From Eledone cirrhosa (taxonomy: Eukaryota), in assembly GCA_964016885.1 (NCBI GenBank), contig OZ024745.1, positions 1,860,001 to 1,924,000 on the forward strand: a DNA stretch of 64,000 nucleotides, in the 5' to 3' direction. Numbering within the stretch: position 1 is the stretch's first letter; every line of letters starts with the position of its first letter. The position numbers and the translations under genes are program-made. The notes under the pieces were generated by a model. The model ran no database searches, was not told where the DNA came from, and was given only the letters and a program-made list of their open reading frames with translations. This document shows positions 18,326 to 56,094 of this stretch, one piece after another.

Positions 18326-18392
18326 TATTTTATCTGATGAGGACGTATTGTTGAAGTTAACTCAGTACCTCTGAAATATGTATAATAAAATA
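18326..18392 (+). ncRNA. Type I hammerhead ribozyme motif in PLE pLTR remnant
   Basis: TATTTTAT-CTGATGA-imperfect stem II-GAAA-TATGTA-TA-ATAAAATA. Confidence 0.7.
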
Positions 18393-18431
18393 TACTTGAT
18401 CACAAGAATATATATTTTGTTAATATTTTGA

Positions 18432-18753
<322 letters not shown>

Positions 18754-18832
18754 TTTCATCTCGGGAACAATTTTGAATAGCGCCAGTTCGTAATTTGAAC
18801 TCGGGAATTTTATATTCTCCGAGTGAAAAGAC

Positions 18833-18917
18833 CCTTCTGACGAGAGTTTATCTTTTCAATGGAAGGCCGCAAGGACTGTCCATTTATTTTTGAGACTCGA
18901 AACCGATTCGGTAAAGG
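18833..18917 (+). ncRNA. Type I hammerhead ribozyme with extended stem II
   Basis: CCTT-CTGACGA-GAGTTT...AGACTC-GAAA-CCG-ATT-CGG-TA-AAGG; GUA cleavage triplet. Confidence 0.8.
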
Positions 18918-18985
18918 TAACCATAGTGAGTAGAGTTAATTTTAAAAAATTTATTTTGAAACTTTTTCTTATTTGCTAAACCTTG

Positions 18986-19032
<47 letters not shown>

Positions 19033-19044
19033 TTAATATAGATG

Positions 19045-19095
19045 AGATTCTACAGGACTAGAACTGTTTCATTCATTAGAAATCATCAGGAATCT
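19045..19095 (-). ncRNA. Type I hammerhead ribozyme (inverted copy)
   Basis: Reverse complement of 19349-19399. Confidence 0.8.
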
Positions 19096-19348
19096 GGGTA
19101 TCAAAAAATAAATATGGTATTTATAGGTCTCTACAAGTGGTAGGAGAGGTTCCGGAACCTGTTTATAGAATTCTGTCTGCCCTTGTTACTCTAAAAACAT
19201 AAATAAATAAAAATAAACTATAGCTTTGTAGAATTAGCTTTTAATGAATTCCCTTTTCTATCAACCAATGACCTGCACCCATCCCACTCCGCACCCTCTC
19301 CTACCACTTGTAGAGACCTATAAATACCATATTTATTTTTTGATACCC

Positions 19349-19399
19349 AGATTCCTGATGATTTCTAATGAATGAAACAGTTCTAGTCCTGTAGAATCT
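19349..19399 (+). ncRNA. Type I hammerhead ribozyme
   Basis: AGATTC-CTGATGA-T-TTC-TAAT-GAA-T-GAAA-CAG-TTCTAGTC-CTG-TA-GAATCT. Confidence 0.8.
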
Positions 19400-19502
19400 C
19401 ATCTATATTAAAACTTTTATACTCTGCTATGTATTGAGTACCTTACTTACTGTGGTTACCTCCGATTCAACCCGGAATAACGTATATATATATATATATA
19501 TA

Positions 19503-20046: not shown

Positions 20047-23000
20047 TATATATGTTATATGGAAGTGTAGGTATATATATATATATATGTTATATGGAAG
20101 TGTAGATATATATATATATTATATGGAAGTGTTGGTATATATATATGTTATATGGAATTGTAGGTATATATATATGTTATATGGAAGTGTATATATATAT
20201 ATATGTTATATGGAAGTGTAGGTATATATATATATATATGTTATATGGAAGTGTAGATATATATATATGTTATATGGAAGTGTAGGTATATATATATGTT
20301 ATATGGAAGTGTAGATATATATATATGTTATATGGAAGTGTAGGTATATATATATGTTATATGGAAGTGTAGATATATATATATGTTATATGGAAGTGTA
20401 GGTATATATATATGTTATATGGAAGTGTAGATATATATATATGTTATATGGAAGTGTAGGTATATATATATGTTATATGGAAGTGTAGATATATATATAT
20501 GTTATATGGAAGTGTAGATATATATATATGTTATATGGAAGTGTAGATATATATATATGTTATATGGAAGTGTAGGTATATATATATGTTATATGGAAGT
20601 GTAGGTATATATATATGTTATATGGAAGTGTAGGTATATATATGTTATATGGAAGTGTAGGTATATATATATGTTATATGGAAGTGTAGCTATATATATA
20701 TGTTATATGGAAGTGTAGGTATATATATATTTTATATGGAAGTGTAGGTATATATATATGTTATATGGAAGTGTAGGTATATATATATGTTATATGGAAG
20801 TGTAGGTATATATATATTTTATATGGAAGTGTAGGTATATATATATGTTATATGGAAGTGTAGGTATATATATATGTTATATGGAAGTGTAGGTATATAT
20901 ATATTTTATATGGAAGTGTAGGTATATATATATGTTATATGGAAGTGTAGGTATATATATATGTTATATGGAAGTGTAGGTATATATATATGTTATATGG
21001 AAGTGTTGGTATATATATATGTTATATGGAAGTGTAGGTATATATATATGTTATATGGAAGTGTAGGTATATATATATGTTATATGGAATTGTAGGTATA
21101 TATATATATATATGTTATATGGAAGTGTTGGTATATATATATTTTATATGGAAGTGTAGGTATATATATATGTTATATGGAAGTGTATATATATATATGT
21201 TATATGGAAGTGTAGGTATATATATATTATATGGAAGGGTAGATATATATATATATGTTATATGGAAGTGTAGATATATATATGTTATATGGAATTGTAG
21301 GTATATATATATGTTATATGGAAGTGTTGGTATATATATATGTTATATGGAAGTGTTGGTATATATATATGTTATATGGAAGTGTAGATATATATATATG
21401 TTATATGGAATTGTAGGTATATATATATGTTATATGGAAGTGTTGGTATATATATATGTTATATGGAAGTGTAGATATATATATGTTATATGGAATTGTA
21501 GGTATATATATATGTTATATGGAAGTGTTGGTATATATATATGTTATATGGAAGTGTTGGTATATATATATGTTATATGGAAGTGTAGATATATATATAT
21601 GTTATATGGAATTGTAGGTATATATATATGTTATATGGAAGTGTAGATATATATATATGTTATATGGAAGTGTAGATATATATATATGTTATATGGAATT
21701 GTAGGTATATATATATGTTATATGGAAGTGTTGGTATATATATATGTTATATGGAAGTGTTGGTATATATATATGTTATATGGAAGTGTAGGTATATATA
21801 TATGTTATATGGAAGTGTAGGTATATATATATGTTATATGGAAGTGTTGGTATATATATATGTTATATGGAAGTGTAGATATATATATATGTTATATGGA
21901 ATTGTAGGTATATATATATGTTATATGGAAGTGTATATATATATATATGTTATATGGAATTGTAGGTATATATATATATGTTATATGGAAGTGTTGGTAT
22001 ATATATATATGTTGTATGGAAGTGTTGGTATATATATATATGTTATATGGAAGTGTAGGTATATATATATGTTATATGGAAGTGTAGGTATATATATGTT
22101 ATATGGAAGTGTTGGTATATATATATATGTTATATGGAAGTGTAGGTATATATATATATGTTATATGGAAGTGTAGGTATATATATATGTTATATGGAAG
22201 TGTAGATATATATATATGTTATATGGAAGTGTAGATATATATATATATATGTTATATGGAAGTGTAGATATATATATATATATGTTATATGGAAGTGTAG
22301 GTATAAATATATATGTTATATGGAAGTGTAGGTATATATATATGTTATATGGAAGTGTTGGTATATATATATATGTTGTATGGAAGTGTTGGTATATATA
22401 TATATGTTATATGGAAGTGTAGGTATATATATATGTTATATGGAAGTGTAGGTATATATATGTTATATGGAAGTGTAGGTATATATATATATGTTATATG
22501 GAAGTGTAGGTATATATATATGTTATATGGAAGTGTAGATATATATATATGTTATATGGAAGTGTAGATATATATATATATATATGTTATATGGAAGTGT
22601 AGATATATATATATATATGTTATATGGAAGTGTAGGTATAAATATATATGTTATATGGAAGTGTAGATATATATATATGTTATATGTTATATGGAAGTGT
22701 AGATATATATATGTTATATGGAAGTGTAGATATATATATATGTTATATGGAAGTGTAGATATATATATATGTTATATGGAAGTGTTGGTATATATATATA
22801 TGTTATATGGAAATGTATATATATATATGTTATATGGAAGTGTTGGTATATATATATGTTATATCGAAGTGTAGGTATATATATATATGTTATATGGAAG
22901 TGTAGGTATATTTATATGTTATATGGAAGTGTTGGTATATATATATGTTACATAGAAGTGTAGATATATATATATGTTATATGGAAGTGTAGGTATATTT

Positions 23001-41712: not shown

Positions 41713-41778
<66 letters not shown>

Positions 41779-41782
<4 letters not shown>

Positions 41783-42046
41783 AACACTTCCATATAACAT
41801 ATATATATATACCTACACTTCCATATAACATATATATATATCAACACATCCATGTAACATATATACATACCTACACTTCCATATAACATATATATATACC
41901 TACACTTCCATATAACATATATACATACCTACACTTCCATATAACATATATATATATACCAACACTTCCATATAACATATATATATATACCAACACTTCC
42001 ATATAACATATATATATATACCAACACTTCCATATAACATATATAT
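41779..42046 (-). repeat. Inverted block of the 29-bp TA-rich satellite
   Basis: CC(A/T)ACACTTCCATATAAC units, including the mirror image of the rare variant GTTACATGGATGTGTTGA at 41402. Confidence 0.92.
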
Positions 42047-42189
42047 ATGGTCCACCTGGTTCCTTACCACATTTCCTTCGTTATATATATATATATAACG
42101 AAGGAAATGTGGTAAGGAACCAGGTGGACCATAACGCACCAAAGTACTCAATAGTTGAGGTAGTAGAGTGGGTAATAGGAACCAGTAAG

Positions 42190-42283
42190 ACCCCGACAGC
42201 TGAGCTCAAGCCGTTTCGACGGCTAATTCTGGACTAAATGAAAATTTATCCTGGTATTTAAATAGCCGATCTTCTCAAGGGGT
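42190..42283 (-). ncRNA. Non-canonical (U3-A8) type I hammerhead ribozyme
   Basis: Reverse complement of 46747-46840. Confidence 0.72.
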
Positions 42284-43398: not shown

Positions 43399-45680
43399 TT
43401 ATAGCCCTAGTCTACCCCCCGGGTCATTATGGGGTTTGAGGGCGAGGTAAGTCCTACGCAATCTATGTTTACATGCAGTAACCAGTTCATCTTTCTTGTT
43501 TAGGAGTTGGTCCGTCGAAAACAGCATTTGTAAAGTTTCCTCCGAGCATAAATTGCACGGACGGCGTCCTCCCGTGTAAGAATTGGCTCTGGACAGTAAT
43601 CTCCAAGTGAGATCATAGGTGATGTTGTTGTCCTTGAGGTCCCATATGTGGCCCGAAAGTGTAGTGGCGTGACGCCGGGCCGGGTTTAGGAAGGTATGTC
43701 TATGTTGGTATAGCCGGGTCTTGAAGTCACATGCGGTAAGTCCTATATAGGCTTTGTTGGAGGTATCCGTCCTCACGTTGCACTGGTAGATCACATTACG
43801 GTCTCTGCATCTATTGTCGAGTGGGCAAATAGATCTATCCGGGCAGTTACACCTCCTGGTCGGTTCTCCACTGCTATTTAGGTTATTTCTGCCATCGGGG
43901 TTGAGTTTTTTGTTGTTAGAGGAGACGATGTTTTGTGCGAAGTTTGGTGTAGTGCTGTAAGAGAGTTTGATGGTATTTTTGTTAATTATGTTGTGGTAGC
44001 GGTGTTGTAATGGGAAGTGTTTTTCAATGAGCCTAAAGAATAGTTTCCCGATGGGAGTTGTCACCTCTGCGTTGTGGGGAGGATTGAACCATGTTACATT
44101 GCGTGAGCGGCGGTGTCTCCTGCTGGTTCCGCTAATGGGAGCTGGACAGTAGGATATTTCCTCCCGGAAACCACTCCGCTTGAGGGCCTGGTTGTAATAA
44201 GGCGCATGTTCATCGAATATCCGCTCATTAGCTGACAAACGGGATATGCGGAGGGAGATGTTTTTGACCAGGTTGTTTGTGATGTTCCTAGGATGGTTTG
44301 ATCGGCGGTGGATGTAGTGCAGATTGTCATTAGGTTTCCTGTATGGGTAGTACAGGTCGTTTTCGAGGTCGAGGGTCACGTCCAGGAAGTTTACTCTGGT
44401 CAGGGACGTTTGTAGGGTTATTTTAAATCCCCAGTCGCGGAAGAATCTGATTAATTGTTTCCGGACCCGATCTGTACTACTGGGGTTGTACCCTTTAAGG
44501 GTAAGGAGCCCATCATCACGGTACAATCCACCACCGAATGCAGGAAACATATCAGTGAGTTTGGCTATTAGGAATAATCCTATAAGATCTGTGACCTCCG
44601 CCGAATCCGTGGCGCCCATGCTGACGTCGAAGGGTGAGTCGGGAGCTCTTTTTATCCATTTAGAGTCGTCAAAGAGTAAGACTGTCTTCCTGGCGTGGAG
44701 GATGATTTTTCTTTCCTGGTCGGTGATGGGCACAAGTGTTTCGGCGAAGTCCAAGGCGGCAGTAAGTAGCGGTAAGGTGATTGAAGCATAGTAGCTCTCT
44801 ATGTCGAACTGTATATGTCAGGTCACCAGTTGGTGCTACTGGTAACATGTATCCCAGTACAACCTGTCCCATGGTCGGGTCGTTGGCGACTAAACTGGCA
44901 ACCCCACCAAGGTTTCTTGGTGAGGAGGGTGACTTTGGACATCCTGCAGGACTAAAAACAAAACCTGTCAAAGGGCAAAGGAGCTCTTAAGAGTCAATGG
45001 CCATCCAAAATCACCGGGAGAGATGACCCCTTAGCCTTTGTCAAGGCAGAATTCTAGGAGAAGGAAAACTCTGATATAACACCTGCAACCCTGATGGTAT
45101 CCAATGATGTTGACTTGTTCTTCTTTTTGGTAAATATCATCTTGGTTAAGAGAGTGGGACTGGCTTTGTGCAGTGCCTTTGCTCACTATAAAAGCTTCAC
45201 GGCACAGGCATTGCTTTATATCTGGAGATCTCTCTGCACTTGTCGTCACATGGTACCATGGGCCCAGCACTATGTGTCAGTAATTGTCACAAGTGTAGTG
45301 TTTGTACCAGAGTTTTCAAGTCGCTGGCTGGACTAAAAAGTCACACTCGTTCAGCGCATCGGTAGGGGTTCTCCTACATGGATATAAAGTAGTGGCCGTA
45401 CTCGAAAACGAGTTGGCAGCCACCATGTCGAACTGTATGAATTTAGTTTCTCGTTTATCCTCCATATTGCTGAACCAGGAGATTACTTCCTGGGTGTTGA
45501 TCCATAGGCTAAGTCGGGTGTGTTGCTTGACTTTTGGTATCACGCGGTCTAGGATTTTTTTGCTGATTCTCCCTATGTCGGACTTCGTTGGGTTAATAAG
45601 CCTGATAGAGGGTTTACGGTCAAAATCGGATTTATGGTCCTTCAGTGTGAAGTATAGTGTCCGTGGGTCTAGAGGTTCCG
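43399..45680 (-). pseudogene. PLE reverse transcriptase / GIY-YIG endonuclease, interrupted at 44815-45424
   Basis: LKDHK..RLINPTKSDIG, FIQFDI|ESYYASI, MGATDSAE, GLYRDDGL, NFLDVTLDL, CNCPDRSICPLDNRC, VIYQC..AYIGLT, CNLCSEE, CKH. Confidence 0.93.
44815..45424 (+). mobile_element. 610-bp non-autonomous bipartite RTE-like element
   Basis: 14-bp TSD ATGTCGAACTGTAT (44801-44814, 45425-45438); RTE 5'-UTR-like TCTAGGAGAAGGAAAACTCTGA; zinc-finger relic CSVCTRVFKSLAGLKSHTRSAH; 3' stem-loop CTCGAAAACGAG. Confidence 0.82.
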
Positions 45681-46746
45681 TGCTTGCCAAGGGAGACGTA
45701 AGATCTTCTTTGTATTCTTTTATCGCTTCCTTTATTTCCTTCCTTCCCCCCTCTCTCCTTAGTCCTTCTACCCCAGCTCTTCTTCTTTGTCAGCGTCTTT
45801 TCTCGCCCACCCGAGGCTGCCCTTTGGCCCCTTGTAGCCTTTGTACCCCCACCCCCTCCCCTAGTCTAGGATAGATTTGGCGGACTCCGCCCTTTATAGC
45901 AGTTGGTTTAGACCCCGGATACTTGTCCCCTTTTTCCGACCGCTCCCACTATCCTCTGTGCCCTCTATATTTCTTAGTGGCACTTATGCCTTATTTTTTC
46001 GTTTCAGTATTTCTTTCTTCGCTTTTCTTTTGGGCGGGGTGGATTCTGAATTTATTCTTCCGTATTCTACCTTTACTTCGTACGAACTTTCATTGTTTTA
46101 GATCTTTTAGAGTTAGCATTAGTATATATTTTTCTCGGGACTCAGAATTATTATCTCGTATTAGTTCACTTTGCTGCACTGGGTGGTTGCTGGAATTGTG
46201 CCCGGGATGGAAACCTTTATTGTTTATTTCGTGGTAGTCTCTTTAGTATTTTGGCCCCTTTTGTTGACCCGTCACCGTATCATTTACGTACTTATACCTC
46301 TTAAAAGGGTCCTCGCCTATTTCGTCCCACCTAGTTCTTTTACTTATTTCGTTATTTCTTTATTTCTTTCTTTACTTCTTTCTTTCTTTATTTATTTATT
46401 TATTCTAGCCTAACAATAGCCTGAGACCTAGGTCGTAGAATTTAATTTACTTTACTTTTTTCTTTACACTTATTTGCTTTTCTTCACTCTCAGTATTTTT
46501 TCTTTCCTATATATTTCTACCCCCCATTGTTCTACCTACCGTTCCGAATTCCTCCCCCTCCCCCTCCCCTGTATCTTCTTTGACCTCATGCCCAGCTGTA
46601 GCTGGCACTACAAACGCTTGATTGGGGCTACTCCACCCCCTCCCCTCTTTCTCCTACTGGCAGGTTTAGCCACCATCTCCCCTACTAATTTGCAACCACA
46701 GAATTACTACTGATTTTTGAAAATCACTTTGACCATATATGCAATT

Positions 46747-46840
46747 ACCCCTTGAGAAGATCGGCTATTTAAATACCAGGATAAATTTTCATTTAGTCCA
46801 GAATTAGCCGTCGAAACGGCTTGAGCTCAGCTGTCGGGGT
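46747..46840 (+). ncRNA. Non-canonical (U3-A8) type I hammerhead ribozyme with TATA box in the stem II loop
   Basis: Stem I ACCCC/GGGGT; core TTGAGAA (46752-58); stem II GA(T)CGGCTA/TAGCCGTC; GAAA (46813-16); stem III CGGCT/AGCTG; GTC with predicted cleavage after 46835. Confidence 0.75.
46766..46798 (+). promoter_or_regulatory. Putative pLTR TATA box and initiator
   Basis: TATTTAAATA at 46766-75 and Inr-like TTAGTC at 46793-98, about 28 nt apart. Confidence 0.5.
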
Positions 46841-46850
46841 CTTACTGGTT

Positions 46851-46908
<58 letters not shown>

Positions 46909-47195
46909 TCGAAATGGTAATTAATTTGTTAGACGTCCGACAAACATAAATGCTTATAACTGATTTAGAGCACTCTCTTCTCTCTACCGTTCTCGTAATT
47001 TTTTCTATCTTTATTTTTTTCTCTCTCTCTTTCTCCAGTGTCGTTTAAATAAACGGTTGTTTGTCAATTATTTACATATTCATTTGCATATTCACACATA
47101 AGTTTGAATAATCCCTAATATATTTCCACTATCCAGTGAATTTCCAGTTAAGATATGATTTTCATGGGTATGTCTCTATCTATAAAAGAACTTTG

Positions 47196-47260
47196 TATTT
47201 TATCTGATGAAAGCGTGCCAATGTTGTCTTGGTTACCCTTGAAATATATATAATAAAATA
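47196..47260 (+). ncRNA. Type I hammerhead motif in a solo pLTR remnant (about 46905-47310)
   Basis: TATTTTAT-CTGATGA-degenerate stem II-GAAA-TATATA-TA-ATAAAATA; CTATAAAAG just upstream. Confidence 0.65.
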
Positions 47261-47304
47261 AATATGGTTTTATAAATACAGTTTCCATTTATTTAATATC
47301 ATTG

Positions 47305-47395
<91 letters not shown>

Positions 47396-47560: not shown

Positions 47561-48134
<574 letters not shown>

Positions 48135-48321: not shown

Positions 48322-49215
48322 CGAGGTGTGTCAGAAAAGTTCCAGGACTGATGTCACAAAAATTTATTTCAAACCCAAACTTCACACTAAGAGTTTTCTC
48401 CTTCAAAGTAATCCCCCTGGAGTCTAATGCACTTTTCCATCCTTTTCTGCCACGCTTGCATGCACTCTTGGAAGGATTCTTCCGGGATCCTCCGCAGTTC
48501 CGTCGTCACGGCCTTTTTGATGTCGTCCACGTCTTCAAAACTGGTCCCCTCCGGGTCGTACTCGAAGATCCATGACTCATCACCGGTGATGACTGTCCCT
48601 AGCCAGTCTGGTTCGGTTTCAAGACGCTCGAGGATGTCCTGGCACACTTGCATGCGTCGACCCTTCTGGTCATCGTTCAGCAGTTTTGGCACCATCTTCG
48701 CGCAGGCTTTCCGCATGTCCAAATCTTCAGTGAGAATCTTCCAGACGCTGTCCCGATTCATGCCCAGCTCATTTGCCATCAGTCGAACAGTCAGCTAACG
48801 ATCGCTACGCACCATCTGCCTGACGCGTTCAACGTTGATCTCAGTCCTGGTTGTTGAGGGCCTTCCGCTCCTGGGGTTATCTTCCACGTCCTCGCGTCCT
48901 TCTTCAAACCTCTTGCACCACTCAAAAACACGTGAGCGTGACATTGTCTCATCTCCATACACTTGCTGCAGCAATCCCAGTGCTTCTGACGGAGTTTTCA
49001 AGTTTGTTCGTTGCTCTGTGCTCATTGCTTGACGACCTGAAACAGAGGACATGTATATAAAATTATGAAGAAAAAAGTTTGATCGCTGCAGAGAGCTAAG
49101 ATTACAGTTACATATTCCAGGGGGATTACTTTGAAGGAGAAAACTCTTAGTGTGAAGTTTGGGTTTGAAATAAATCTTTTGTGACATCAGTCCTGGAACT
49201 TTTTTGACACACCTC

Positions 49216-49216: not shown

Positions 49217-49284
<68 letters not shown>

Positions 49285-49890
49285 AACAAAAGATGGTTAA
49301 AAGAGTTCCATGTATTTTATTATGCGCATTTCAAAAACAAATATCATCATGCAATAATATTTGTGTTTTCATCAGATAAAACAGGAAGACATGATATGAA
49401 GGTTAAAAAAACACTTGTGGATAGTGCAGTTTTAAATCAACATATGAAAAGTAGTTTTAGATTGATGTGTGATATTGGGAAAAATATTTTATTTTGAGGG
49501 GGGAGGGGGGGGTGAAAAAGAGGAGGAGATGAGAGTAAAAAGTGGAGAGGGAGGAGTATAATGAGGAAGGATGAGATAGGAGGAGAGATGGGTGATAGAG
49601 AGAGAGAGATAGCTTTTATAACTGAGAAAAATATATTGTTTTACATAGAGAGGTTGAAAACCGTTGGAAGATAATGTATAAATTAAAAGAATTTGAAAAT
49701 TAACGAAGAGAAAAATAATGTAAAGTTAAGGTTTGTATATTGAAGGGTTTAATAATATGTGCGATGAAAAGAAAATGTTAATATGTATTAAGAATAATAT
49801 TTAAGGGTTTAATAAAAACTACTTTTCATATGTTGATTTAAAACTGCACTATCCACAAGTGTTTTTTTAACCTTCATATCATGTCTTCCT

Positions 49891-49959
49891 GTTTTATCTG
49901 ATGAAAACACAAATATTATTGCATGATGATATTTGTTTTTGAAATGCGCATAATAAAAT
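49891..49959 (+). ncRNA. Type I hammerhead in the 5' pLTR of PLE2 (antisense copy at about 49313-49383)
   Basis: GTTTTAT-CTGATGA-long stem II-GAAA-TGCGCA-TA-ATAAAAT; palindromic minimal stem III. Confidence 0.8.
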
Positions 49960-50167
49960 ACATGGAACTCTTTTAACCATCTTTTGTTCTTATATATTAT
50001 GTATACTCCAGTCCTACAAACTGTAGAGTGCTTCTTATCCGATATCTGCATTGCTTTATTGTACTACAATAAAACTCACCTCCTACATTAACTTGCTCCT
50101 TAACGGTTGAGCGCTAACTCTCATATTGGATACCTTTTGATGGTCCTTTACTTTTTTCTTCTACAAC

Positions 50168-52760
50168 ATGGATTATTACAACATAACAAATTCAACTAAA
50201 GATATTCCTATACCTGGTAAATCTGAATTCACCAAACTTCTAATTGAAAAAACTGACTCCTTCGTAAGAAGACTTAGATGGATAGCCTATTTCTATGACC
50301 AGCGCCTAAAAGGGAACTTCTATACCAAGGAACATAACTTCCTCGATCATCTATTTAATTCTAGAAGAAATCCTCCTTCCAACAAAAATCTAGTGCAATT
50401 CGAGGAAGAGTTAACTAAAATTATAAAAATCTTAAATTCAAGAGATACCCTTACAAAGGACAAGAGCACCTTGTAAATCTCAAGAACACAATTTCAAACC
50501 TAAATTCCTCAAAAAATGTTTTAGTACACTCTGACAAAACCAATAATTTATATGGTATTTCCAAGGATAATTATAACAACCTTATCCTAAAGGAACTTAG
50601 GAAAAAATATCGTAAAACCAACCATGATAATTTAGAATACATAAACTTTGAAGCCTCTGAGATTATGTCAAAACTTGGCATTGAAAAAAAGACCGAACCA
50701 TTCCTCCCAAGAACTCCGAGGATAAATCTCAAGGATCACAAAAACAATTTTCGCACTGAACTACCTGTTAGATTAATCTCTCCCTCTAAATCAGATCTGG
50801 GGGTTGTTAGTAAAGCCATCTTGGATAGAATTATCCCACGGGTTCGTTCTAATTGCTCTTCCTTGAACTTAAATTTATGGTTTGGTACTTCTGAAGTGAT
50901 TGGCTGGTTCAACAAATTGAATAATAAAAACAAACTAAAATTTGTTCAATTTGATATTGCCAGCTACTATTCTTCTATTTCGCCTTCACTTCTCTATAAT
51001 GCCCTATCTTTCGCACTTAAATATTCTGACATCACCACAGATGAACTTCACATCATTCTCACCGCACGTAAAACCATCCTAGAGTTCAACAATGAATATT
51101 GGACCAGAGCCGATACCTCTAACAACTTCGACATCACAATGGGAGCATCCGATTCATCCCAATTGACAGATTTAATTGGTATCTTTATTTTGAACTCTTT
51201 GAGTCGGAAAATTCCTCAACTTCGCAGTGGTATTTATCGTGACGATGGACTCTTTACTATCTTAAATTGCAACATAGTTAACCTTAATATTATTAAGAAC
51301 AATATACGTAATCTCTTTAACCAACATAACCTAAAAATTGAATTTGATAACAGCATCAAACTAGCTAATTTCTTGGATGTATCTCTTAATCTTGACACTG
51401 GCCTATATTACCCTTACCATAAAAACAATGAGAACCTAAATTATGTTAATTTTAAATCTAACCATCCTACTAATATCAAGAATGCTATAGTTAGTAATAT
51501 TGGAAAAAGAATATATAACCTATCTTCTAATAAAAACATCTTTGGTGCTGACGCCAATTACTATAATAACGCGCTTTCTAAAGCCGGCTATCCTGATAAA
51601 ATTAAATATAGTAAAGAAACAAATTCTAGAAGAACTTAGTAGAATAATTAATCATGATCATTCCAATAATTTTAATAAAAGACCTAGATACAAAAACATA
51701 ATCTGGTATAATGCTCCTTTCTCCATCTCTATTAATAATAATATTCCTAAATTATTCTTTAGTGCCTTAAATAAATGCTTCCCTCCCTCACATATCTATA
51801 GTAAAATATTTAACAAACACACTATAACAATTTCATATTCTACATCCTCCAACATTTCCAACATTATCTCTAAACAAAGGGCGGTGGATTGGCAGTATCG
51901 GTAGAGGGTCGGACGCCATGCTTTACAGCATAGTTACGTCCCTTTACAATCTGAGTTCAAATCCCGCCGAGGTTGACTTTGCCTTTCATCCTTACGGGGT
52001 CGATAAAATAAAGTACCAGTAATGCACTGGGTAATTGCTGGCCTTGTGCCTAAAGTAGAAACAATTATCTCTAAACACAACAATAAAATACTAAATACTA
52101 AATCTCTTCCTTCCAACACTGAATATCATAATAATAGTAATAGTACTTCCGACGTAATTGTAAACCCTAGGCTAATTTCTGCAAACCCAAATACAACGTC
52201 AAACACAACTTCGCTAAATGTTCTTAATCCCATTCTAAATCAAGAAACTATTATTCCTATCGCAAATAACTTCTCCAATCCAATTCCTTCTATAGATAAC
52301 ACTAGATCACTCGTTAATAATCTCTCTAATTGCAATTGCCCTGTTAAAAATACATGTCCTCTCAACAACCATTGTCTCGATAAAAACTTAATTTACGAAT
52401 GTAAAGTTATAACTGACACCAATTTCTTCACCTATTTTGGCTCCACTTCCACCTCCTTTAAAGCTCGTCTTTATAACCATCATTCGTCTTTTAAATACAA
52501 ACTTAAAAGAACCAACACGGCTCTCTCAGAACTCATATGGTCCTTGAAAGCCAAAAATATTAAATATAGCATCTTTTGGAAGAAGGTTTCTTCTGCGTTT
52601 TTCATACTTGAACAGTTCTCTATCCAAGATTTGCAATCTCTGTCTAAATGAAAAATTTACCATTATTTCTAATTTAGATTCTATAATAAATAGACGCACT
52701 GACTTGTTTTCTATCTGCTTGCATAAATTCCACAAAAAATTCCACAAAGTATACAGCTAA
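50168..52760 (+). pseudogene. PLE RT / GIY-YIG ORF with about 3 frameshifts and a SINE insertion
   Basis: STKDIPIP, RRLRWIAYF, SDKTNNLY, LKDHKNNF, FVQFDIASYYSSI, GIYRDDGL, CNCPVKNTCPLNNHC, LIYEC..TYFGST, CNLCLNEK; TAA at 52758-60. Confidence 0.93.
51877..52063 (+). mobile_element. Full-length tRNA-derived SINE inserted in PLE2
   Basis: 14-bp TSD ATTATCTCTAAACA (51863-76, 52064-77); removal restores NISNIISKHNNKIL; B-box GAGTTCAAATCCC. Confidence 0.93.
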
Positions 52761-53695: not shown

Positions 53696-53764
53696 GTTTT
53701 ATCTGATGAAAACACAAATATTATTGCATGATGATATTTGTTTTTGAAATGCGCATAATAAAAT
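53696..53764 (+). ncRNA. Type I hammerhead in the 3' pLTR of PLE2
   Basis: Identical to 49891-49959. Confidence 0.8.
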
Positions 53765-54178
53765 ACATGGAACTCTTTTAACCATCTTTTGTTCTTGTAT
53801 ATTATGTATACTCCAGTCCTACAAACTGTAGAGTGCTTCTTATCCGATATCTGCATTGCTTTATTGTACTACAATAAAACTCACCTCCTACATTATATAT
53901 ATATATATACACACTGTAAGACAGTTAAAATAAAGGATGTGACCAAACCATATACGTGTATAAGTATATATGCATATATGTGTGAGTGTATGTTTGTAAA
54001 AGGTAAACAGAAATAACGAAGCAAACGACACAGTACATCAAAGAAATATATTAGTTTAAGGAAAAGAGTCTCAACGTTTCCGACACTAATTCTTCATCAG
54101 AACATAGAGTTAGAAATAGAAGATAAAATAGAAAGTTAAAGATTGAGAAGAGATAGGAACAGGAACAAATTAGAAAAA

Positions 54179-56091: not shown

Positions 56092-56094
<3 letters not shown>

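Follow-up and report, generated by a model that had tools for sequence, protein, structure and literature searches.

Twin bulged hairpins beside the insertion ends of Hydra-clade Penelope-like elements in Eledone cirrhosa and related loci

Penelope-like elements (PLEs) of Eledone cirrhosa carry a small bulged hairpin downstream of the hammerhead ribozyme, and related loci show that this hairpin usually occurs twice, as H1 and H2. Short insertion ends stop just 5′ of H1, and long ends stop just 5′ of H2. The general form derived from the aligned loci can be written GCTC–stem-loop–TN bulge–GAGC-RC. We studied a 64-kb window, which is the whole stretch of 64,000 nucleotides analysed, together with 97 further loci encoding relatives. 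An initial annotation of the window had proposed a conserved cis RNA signal in the tails of three PLE families, and the 97 loci support a conserved, covarying cis structure tied to reverse-transcription start sites. It is probable that the hairpin of the sense RNA loads the protein that joins reverse transcriptase (RT) and endonuclease, and fixes the target-primed start, so that the tail would equal the hairpin spacing.

Elements and hairpins of the window

Judged by their motifs, the window elements are Hydra-clade PLEs rather than Naiad. The Hydra clade is defined by a C-terminal GIY-YIG endonuclease, a CxCX5C linker, DKT, and CxxC/CxH motifs (Craig et al. 2021, PMC8557442). The same account describes canonical hammerheads, (TA)n targets, pLTRs, and a tail often at one end only, as found here. 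The translations P0001–P0003 and 124 homologues showed a single ORF with the RT followed by the C-terminal GIY-YIG endonuclease. The linker reads CNC-x5-C in both ORF families, CNLC and CKH occur in P0001, and there is no CCHH. DKG is changed to DKT in P0002, and the pLTR hammerheads and (TA)n insertion are those of the Hydra clade. At the N-terminal RWK motif, PLE2 has by eye RW then I, and the PLE1 N-terminus lies outside the window. Naiad identity (N-terminal endonuclease, CxC/DKA, no canonical hammerhead) was rejected, as the endonuclease is C-terminal, DKT is found, and hammerheads are present. A Pfam search of the window PLE ORFs gave no family at E 0.001, and the viral contigs searched held no relatives of these elements. 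PLE3 has no ORF in the window and was assigned by hammerhead, hairpin, and target only. The features are listed below.

19030..19156 (−), inverted PLE3 copy with short end; ends 5–6 nt before H1
19355..19393 (+), PLE3 type I hammerhead, core to cleavage site
19415..19482 (+), PLE3 tail; runs from the short-end position to the (TA)n junction, where the long end lies
19421..19441 (+), H1 of PLE3; ACTC/GAGT outer helix, 3-bp inner stem with G·U, TT bulge, 3′ AC
42144..42169 (−), H1 of PLE1; one C·C mismatch in the inner stem; long end at 42098
42195..42278 (−), PLE1 hammerhead; U3-A8 core, palindromic loop III
43399..44817 (−), PLE1 ORF; RT core to C-terminal GIY-YIG with Hydra-clade motifs; upstream part interrupted
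45678..46852 (+), inverted 5′-truncated PLE1 copy with short end
47660..48093, PLE2 head-to-head unit; long end 47660, short end about 48093
47712..47738 (−), H1 in this PLE2 head-to-head unit
47791–47845 (−), PLE2 hammerhead in this head-to-head unit
49283..49815 (−), inverted PLE2 copy with short end
49898..49952 (+), PLE2 upstream-pLTR hammerhead
50005..50031 (+), H1 of PLE2, read-through (5′UTR) copy
50095..50114 (+), H2 of PLE2; GCTC/GAGC form, 4–11 nt past the long-end position
50168..52651 (+), PLE2 ORF, broken; DKT motif, RT, CxCX5C linker, GIY-YIG
53703..53893 (+), PLE2 3′ pLTR; hammerhead 53703–53757, H1, long end at (TA)n
53810..53836 (+), H1 in the PLE2 3′ pLTR
56093..56495, PLE1-subfamily head-to-head unit; short end 56093 (−), long end 56495
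56424..56449, H1 in the PLE1-subfamily head-to-head unit
60572..60779, PLE1 head-to-head unit; short end 60572 (−), long end 60779
60708..60733, H1 in the PLE1 head-to-head unit

All seven hairpins of the initial annotation (7/7) were found in the window, without their 3′ RC at 19421–19439 (+), 42146–42169 (−), 47714–47738 (−), 50005–50029, 53810–53834, 56424–56447, and 60708–60731. Every one of them has a type I hammerhead on its 5′ side. Pattern search recovered those of PLE2 (50004–30, ~53809, and ~47713), and the PLE1 hairpins agreed down to the single mismatch at ~42147–42170, an inner-stem C·C. The PLE3 hairpin at 19420 also stands, with the correction that its inner stem (19425–19433) includes a G·U pair. 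The loose pattern ACTC-N8-20-GAGT gave 12 matches in the window against 5.2 expected. A structural pattern, composed after the data were known, gave 8 matches; 100 dinucleotide shuffles averaged 0.06 and never exceeded 1. Its eighth match (50095–50114) is the second PLE2 hairpin, which was absent from the initial annotation; among PLE1–PLE3, H2 is known in the window for PLE2 only. The covariance model gave 8 window sites at E < 0.02, H2 of PLE2 included, and 6 of the 8, this H2 among them, belonged to its training set. A ninth site was weak (46942–46981, 12.5 bits, E 1.2). The individual hairpin sequences had ordinary folding energies (z 0.04 to −1.63), which leaves the comparison to carry the case.

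The three families had been described as dissimilar, with pLTRs that do not align. Their pLTRs indeed gave no mutual BLAST matches, but PLE1 and PLE2 (44% RT identity) belong to a single 8-row clade, whose SH-aLRT support is full and which also includes four database proteins labelled as cephalopod. The swap to ACTC/GAGT therefore probably counts once. The RT tree was built from window, locus, and database proteins, and the Hydra-clade label rests on motifs.

Several other features were observed in the window. The PLE1 hammerheads at 42195–42278 (−), 46752–46835, and 56110–56195 (−) share the U3-A8 core, a long stem II insertion, and a palindromic loop III; this core variant is known (PMC4209133). 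Positions 20047–41498 form a 21-kb satellite built of 29-bp units, extremely G-skewed and with TA-rich spacers, and ~290 bp of it are inverted at 41760–42048. This inverted piece borders a 36-nt PLE1 long-end stub (42046–42081), which lies tail-to-tail with the main long end across (TA)8. A decayed mariner-like DNA transposon with an HTH_48 match and terminal inverted repeats sits between PLE2 copies (48340–49215). The 400-bp unit 46907–47309, between (TA)n runs, starts with the weak hairpin match named above and closes with a hammerhead (47204–47252) and a short end. It is possibly an internally deleted non-autonomous element, related to 18326–18434. Another (TA)n-flanked unit (18750–18987) holds a hammerhead-like motif at ~18837, in which stem II has a long insertion; ahead of this motif is an ACTC...GAGT hairpin of other geometry (18799–18824). 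This hairpin was rejected as a member, since it lies upstream of its hammerhead, lacks the 2-nt bulge and 3′ RC, and has no covariance-model match. At 19335–19413, reads and contigs were joined back by 76–78 nt (19412 to 19335), which shows that PLE3-family tandem units of hammerhead and short end exist elsewhere, like minimal retrozyme arrays.

Covariation and strand of the hairpin in related loci

The comparison set comprised 78 metagenome and 19 genome-bin loci, the metagenome loci being drawn from the best 80 of 392 confirmed stretches. These are animal-type retrotransposon contigs within the metagenome and genome-bin collections. The 19 bacterial genome-bin contigs (L079–L097) carry animal-type Penelope-like elements in (TA)n tracts, most likely as host contamination. 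Anchors were defined by sequence alone, as GCTC, 6–28 bases, and GAGC-RC. We obtained 114 strict anchors in the 97 loci, 111 non-coding and 3 coding, with coding DNA making up 173 of 304 kb. On the ORF strand lay 97 of the non-coding anchors and 14 on the opposite strand, at least some of the latter in inverted copies. Rather than being absent from most other families, the motif had a strict anchor in 59 of the 97 loci, many of the others being short contigs or short-ended copies, and it recurred in 36 families with a median protein identity of 50% and unalignable flanks.

Published Hydra consensi, inspected by eye, showed the motif in 3 of 6 (coral, sea cucumber), with a near match in a fourth and no clear match in two; the Hydra-1_Ajap consensus has it twice. 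A 9-mer search of the published Naiad and Chlamys consensi gave no such hairpin, and line breaks may hide matches there. Four 9-mers of the 3′ strand occurred 7 times in the supplement of PMC8557442, 4 times in Hydra hairpins and 3 times elsewhere without a hairpin.

After dereplication, 89 distinct hairpins remained. In the register of a 2-nt 3′ bulge, inner pair 1 was Watson–Crick in 85/88 (54 C-G, 31 T-A), and its mutual information (MI) of 0.93 exceeded the shuffle maximum of 0.12, so covariation was better than in shuffled controls. Inner pair 2 was formed in 60/81 hairpins (shuffle mean 43%), pair 3 in 48/58 (shuffle mean 39%), and pair 4 in 28/44, which is marginal. For bulge registers 0, 1, 3, and 4 the paired fraction was never above the shuffle maximum, and two off-register cells had raised MI (0.33–0.35). 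The bulge was TT, TC, or TA in 87 of the 89 distinct hairpins. The outer helix was nearly invariant in sequence, with paired swaps to ACTC/GAGT (window), GCAC/GTGC (L085, L096), and GTTC/GAAC (L071). The ACTC/GAGT motif of the initial annotation is real, but is a local compensatory variant of the general GCTC/GAGC form.

RNAalifold on 37 hand-picked matches recovered the same seven pairs, with a covariation of 0.53, where shuffles gave 0.17 and slid controls no more than 0.16, values biased by the hand-picked set. On the trees, inner pair 1 of H1 switched between C-G and T-A 5 to 7 times, always on both sides, in a set selected for that pair. Independent contrasts for pair 1 (FastTree) went 5/5 in one direction (p 0.06), too few for significance. 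Among the PLE3 raw reads, ~13% show G>A at 19431, a change that would disrupt inner pair 3 if the opposite base stayed the same; the variant rows listed within the PLE3 hairpin number at least three, two in the loop and this G>A.

A chance resemblance, or neutral shared ancestry of three related families, would agree with the single clade of PLE1 and PLE2 and with the ordinary single-sequence stability. It has little to say about 36 families that share the motif at a median protein identity of 50% between unalignable flanks, about repeated two-sided changes, or about 8 window matches where 0.06 were expected. We regard this explanation as largely refuted already and give it next to no weight.

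The strand could be judged from the mispairs. Oppositions within the stem were 58 Watson–Crick, 6 G·U, 0 A·C, and 5 other; since G·U is tolerated and A·C is not, these sequences point to the sense strand as the folded one. A G·T wobble is also compatible with sense-strand single-stranded DNA. An antisense template in PLEs has been argued for (PMC3846280), and the antisense strand, as first-strand cDNA or antisense RNA template, could fold and guide second-strand priming or template switching. Such folding predicts A·C on the sense strand, against the 0 A·C and 6 G·U at flanked positions and the 0 A·C and 7 G·U in H1 pairs 2–4 of the 36 families. Moreover, cDNA that starts at a given end does not contain the hairpin marking it. 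Antisense folding is therefore very improbable.

Twin arrangement and insertion ends

Two hairpins were found before 31 of 43 ORF starts, one before 8, and none before 4, counting ORF starts with at least 150 nt upstream and without dereplication. Several of the one-hairpin starts show a variant second copy. H1 starts 40–71 nt past the ribozyme GAAA, H2 starts 55–83 nt past the start of H1, and across 24 distinct twin regions the end of H2 lies 3–40 nt upstream of the first ATG. Many H2 copies are minimal; 12/23 form pair 2. One Hydra-type ORF start (L013:1670-1790) has a degenerate hammerhead ahead and no hairpin; it either truly lacks one or has lost it by deletion.

Downstream of a hammerhead-like core we found 52 (TA)n junctions, and a read-through copy was available for 17. 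Fifteen of these 17 junctions lay 6–14 nt before a hairpin, or 2–9 nt before it once microhomology is allowed for, 7 before H1 (short) and 8 before H2 (long), and the offset was 8 nt in 7 of the 15. The remaining two were rejected as spurious matches. A comparison of all flanks gave 50 rows in all. Of these, 26 placed an end within −1..6 nt of a hairpin and collapse to 21 family-by-hairpin ends; 9 reciprocal rows, 6 between-family divergences, 6 rows from inversion junctions or matching flanks, and 1 ambiguous row were removed by hand. At the family level this is 21/23 ends, the two true exceptions being L019 2498 and L028 2701. The same windows cover 15% of positions and 36% of TAT/ATA sites; against the latter, 21/23 gives a rough p of 6e-8, as the families are related and local alignments pass through chance matches. 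Positions −1 to −8 before the hairpin are 67–88% A+T. From a run labelled with the same species, 417 raw reads switch from the PLE3 reference to (TA)n at 19415, 5 nt short of H1, an exit point taken from 15 of 280 loose-end rows with the long end masked. With genomic 3′ ends as a proxy for cDNA starts, the hairpin holds a fixed position relative to the cDNA start, and it forms a conserved, covarying secondary structure in the template strand, two properties of an RT signal.

The initial annotation had placed the motif only in long ends. Short-ended copies do lack the hairpin, but it is not a property of the tail, as it occurs twice; each insertion end lies just 5′ of one of the two copies, and only long ends therefore hold a hairpin. 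Tails here are about 55–90 nt and bounded by two hairpins. Eleven head-to-head units had both ends resolved, and 10 of them paired one short with one long end (6/6 in the window, 4/5 in the loci; p 0.006 against independent choice). The sole exception is short/short, and long/long units were not found. A one-sided tail was already known (PMC3846280, PMC8557442); new here is that each insertion end is marked by its own hairpin.

The ends might also be read as resolution cuts a few bases 5′ of the motif, and not as RT starts, if the GIY-YIG endonuclease recognises a sense-strand DNA hairpin or cruciform in the pLTR or a transposition intermediate. The Hydra-clade account ascribes the tail, 30–40 bp there, to endonuclease-mediated resolution (PMC8557442), and an earlier report that the tail is needed for endonuclease recognition is cited in PMC11167929. 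The nearly invariant outer helix would suit recognition at the DNA level. So would the (TA)n runs directly 5′ of an internal hairpin at L037:450-480, L038:2480-2491, and L081:2410-2437, as if the site were also a target; these runs suggest that insertion or slippage also takes place at the AU-rich start site. However, the spacer can be anywhere between 8 and 20 nt long, its pairs covary, the bulge is fixed on one side, and G·U/G·T is tolerated on one strand only, all of which fit a duplex or cruciform poorly. In the anole element the ends obtained in vitro are RT start sites on RNA (PMC11167929). We consider a DNA-level signal unlikely.

The proximity of H2 to the first ATG in the twin regions would also suit a 5′UTR regulatory structure, acting in translation of the uncapped ribozyme-cleaved RNA or in autoregulation by the ORF protein. 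Ribozyme-linked initiation of translation has been proposed for other retrotransposons (PMC7761336), and the 36% of TAT/ATA sites within the same windows would allow the ends to arise incidentally by (TA)n microhomology. The observed 21/23 is far above this share, the offset is narrow, and both hairpins, not the ATG-proximal one alone, have an end ahead of them. As the sole explanation, a 5′UTR element is less likely still than a DNA-level signal; the hairpin may have a second, translational role.

Proposed start mechanism and relation to known systems

If the hairpin of the sense RNA loads the RT-endonuclease, as we think probable, the protein would grip it by the invariant outer helix, the bulge, and the 3′ RC. 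The nicked (TA)n primer would anneal to AU-rich bases ~3–8 nt 5′ of the hairpin, and synthesis would proceed away from the hairpin, which would stay uncopied. A start at H1 would then give a short end and a start at H2 a long end enclosing H1, with the H1–H2 interval as the tail. Because the used hairpin would not be copied, short ends would be without H1, and long ends would have H1 but lack H2.

Small RNA structures, often bulged, that the cognate RT recognises and that set its start are known from HBV epsilon, the R2 3′UTR, and the 3′ stem-loops of LINEs and SINEs. The R2 and LINE signals lie upstream of the start and are copied, and epsilon templates protein priming from its own bulge; the hairpin described here lies 3′ of the presumed start, would be uncopied from that start, and is duplicated. 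Telomerase RNA and the DRT2 ncRNA have an internal template start set by flanking RNA structure, with a short stretch for primer alignment. They differ from the present elements, which show no repeat addition, no template boundary, and no Rfam match, and whose RT is fused to an endonuclease. RT-loading stem-loops are known in kind, and new here is a hairpin that is downstream of the start, uncopied, and duplicated. The Rfam 15 covariance models gave 0 matches at gathering score in 20 of the 97 loci, nothing significant over the PLE2 pLTR and 5′UTR, and microsatellite noise among the listed 150 of 240 rows for the window.

The closest functional parallel is Poseidon of Anolis carolinensis (PAc), by analogy with which the genomic ends would be RT starts. 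In vitro it has two internal RT start sites whose distance equals the tail, and it requires RNA well 3′ of the starts, to +172 (Frangieh et al. 2024, PMC11167929). The protein, a predicted dimer, cuts and extends both target strands (PMC11167929). PAc belongs to another clade, its starts lie inside the ORF in an 'AC-rich stem loop', and its template is without GCTC/GAGC; the sections of the report consulted leave the RNA binding element unmapped and give no covariation (PMC11167929). By eye, another kind of hairpin, bulged by 3 nt on its 3′ side, can be seen in the PAc template at ~+121 to +147; it directly follows the main RT start on the 3′ side, within the region needed in vitro (PMC11167929).

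The protein model of a Hydra-clade relative (pLDDT 90) had telomerases as its eight best PDB matches, several of them RNA-bound. This predicted telomerase-like fold fits an RNA-structure-guided RT and locates no binding site. In the sections of the Hydra-clade account consulted (PMC8557442), we found no description of a structure 3′ of the hammerhead. The same holds for the motif and for tail-bounding twin structures in the parts consulted of the PLE literature, including PMC8557442, PMC11167929, PMC4209133, PMC3846280, PMC7761336, PMC5737381, and bioRxiv 10.64898/2026.07.22.740005; older literature or Repbase may hold one.

Loading at the hairpins may also bear on the one-sided tail. As a tentative extension, on the doubtful side of even, H1 and H2 would each load one subunit of a dimer, and each subunit would extend one nicked (TA)n strand. 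Such twin priming would produce, in one event, a head-to-head insertion tailed at one end alone. In the ribozyme-cleaved monomer both hairpins sit at the 5′ end, ~30–55 nt 3′ of the hammerhead cut, and a lone copy is without H2 at its 3′ end. Progeny of full pLTR-ORF-pLTR length would therefore require an RNA circle, or a template jump between the ends that the ribozyme makes. Circular templates for PLEs have been proposed (PMC4209133), and against a circle or jump stands the finding that ribozyme cleavage is dispensable in vitro (PMC11167929). If true, twin priming from such a template would give the hammerhead a role.

For two decades, template choice and the one-sided tail have been open questions in PLEs, the nearest relatives of telomerase. 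The hairpin offers a candidate signal of 20–30 nt supported by covariation, with the prediction that an insertion end moves when the hairpin is moved. It also defines a candidate minimal RNP for structural studies (the leading PDB fold matches listed include no PLE), and it might serve as a compact, portable RNA handle in target-primed insertion. The hairpins provide a way to annotate the true ends of Hydra-clade elements. If twin priming is true, the sister group of telomerase would have a telomerase-like internal template start defined by RNA structure.
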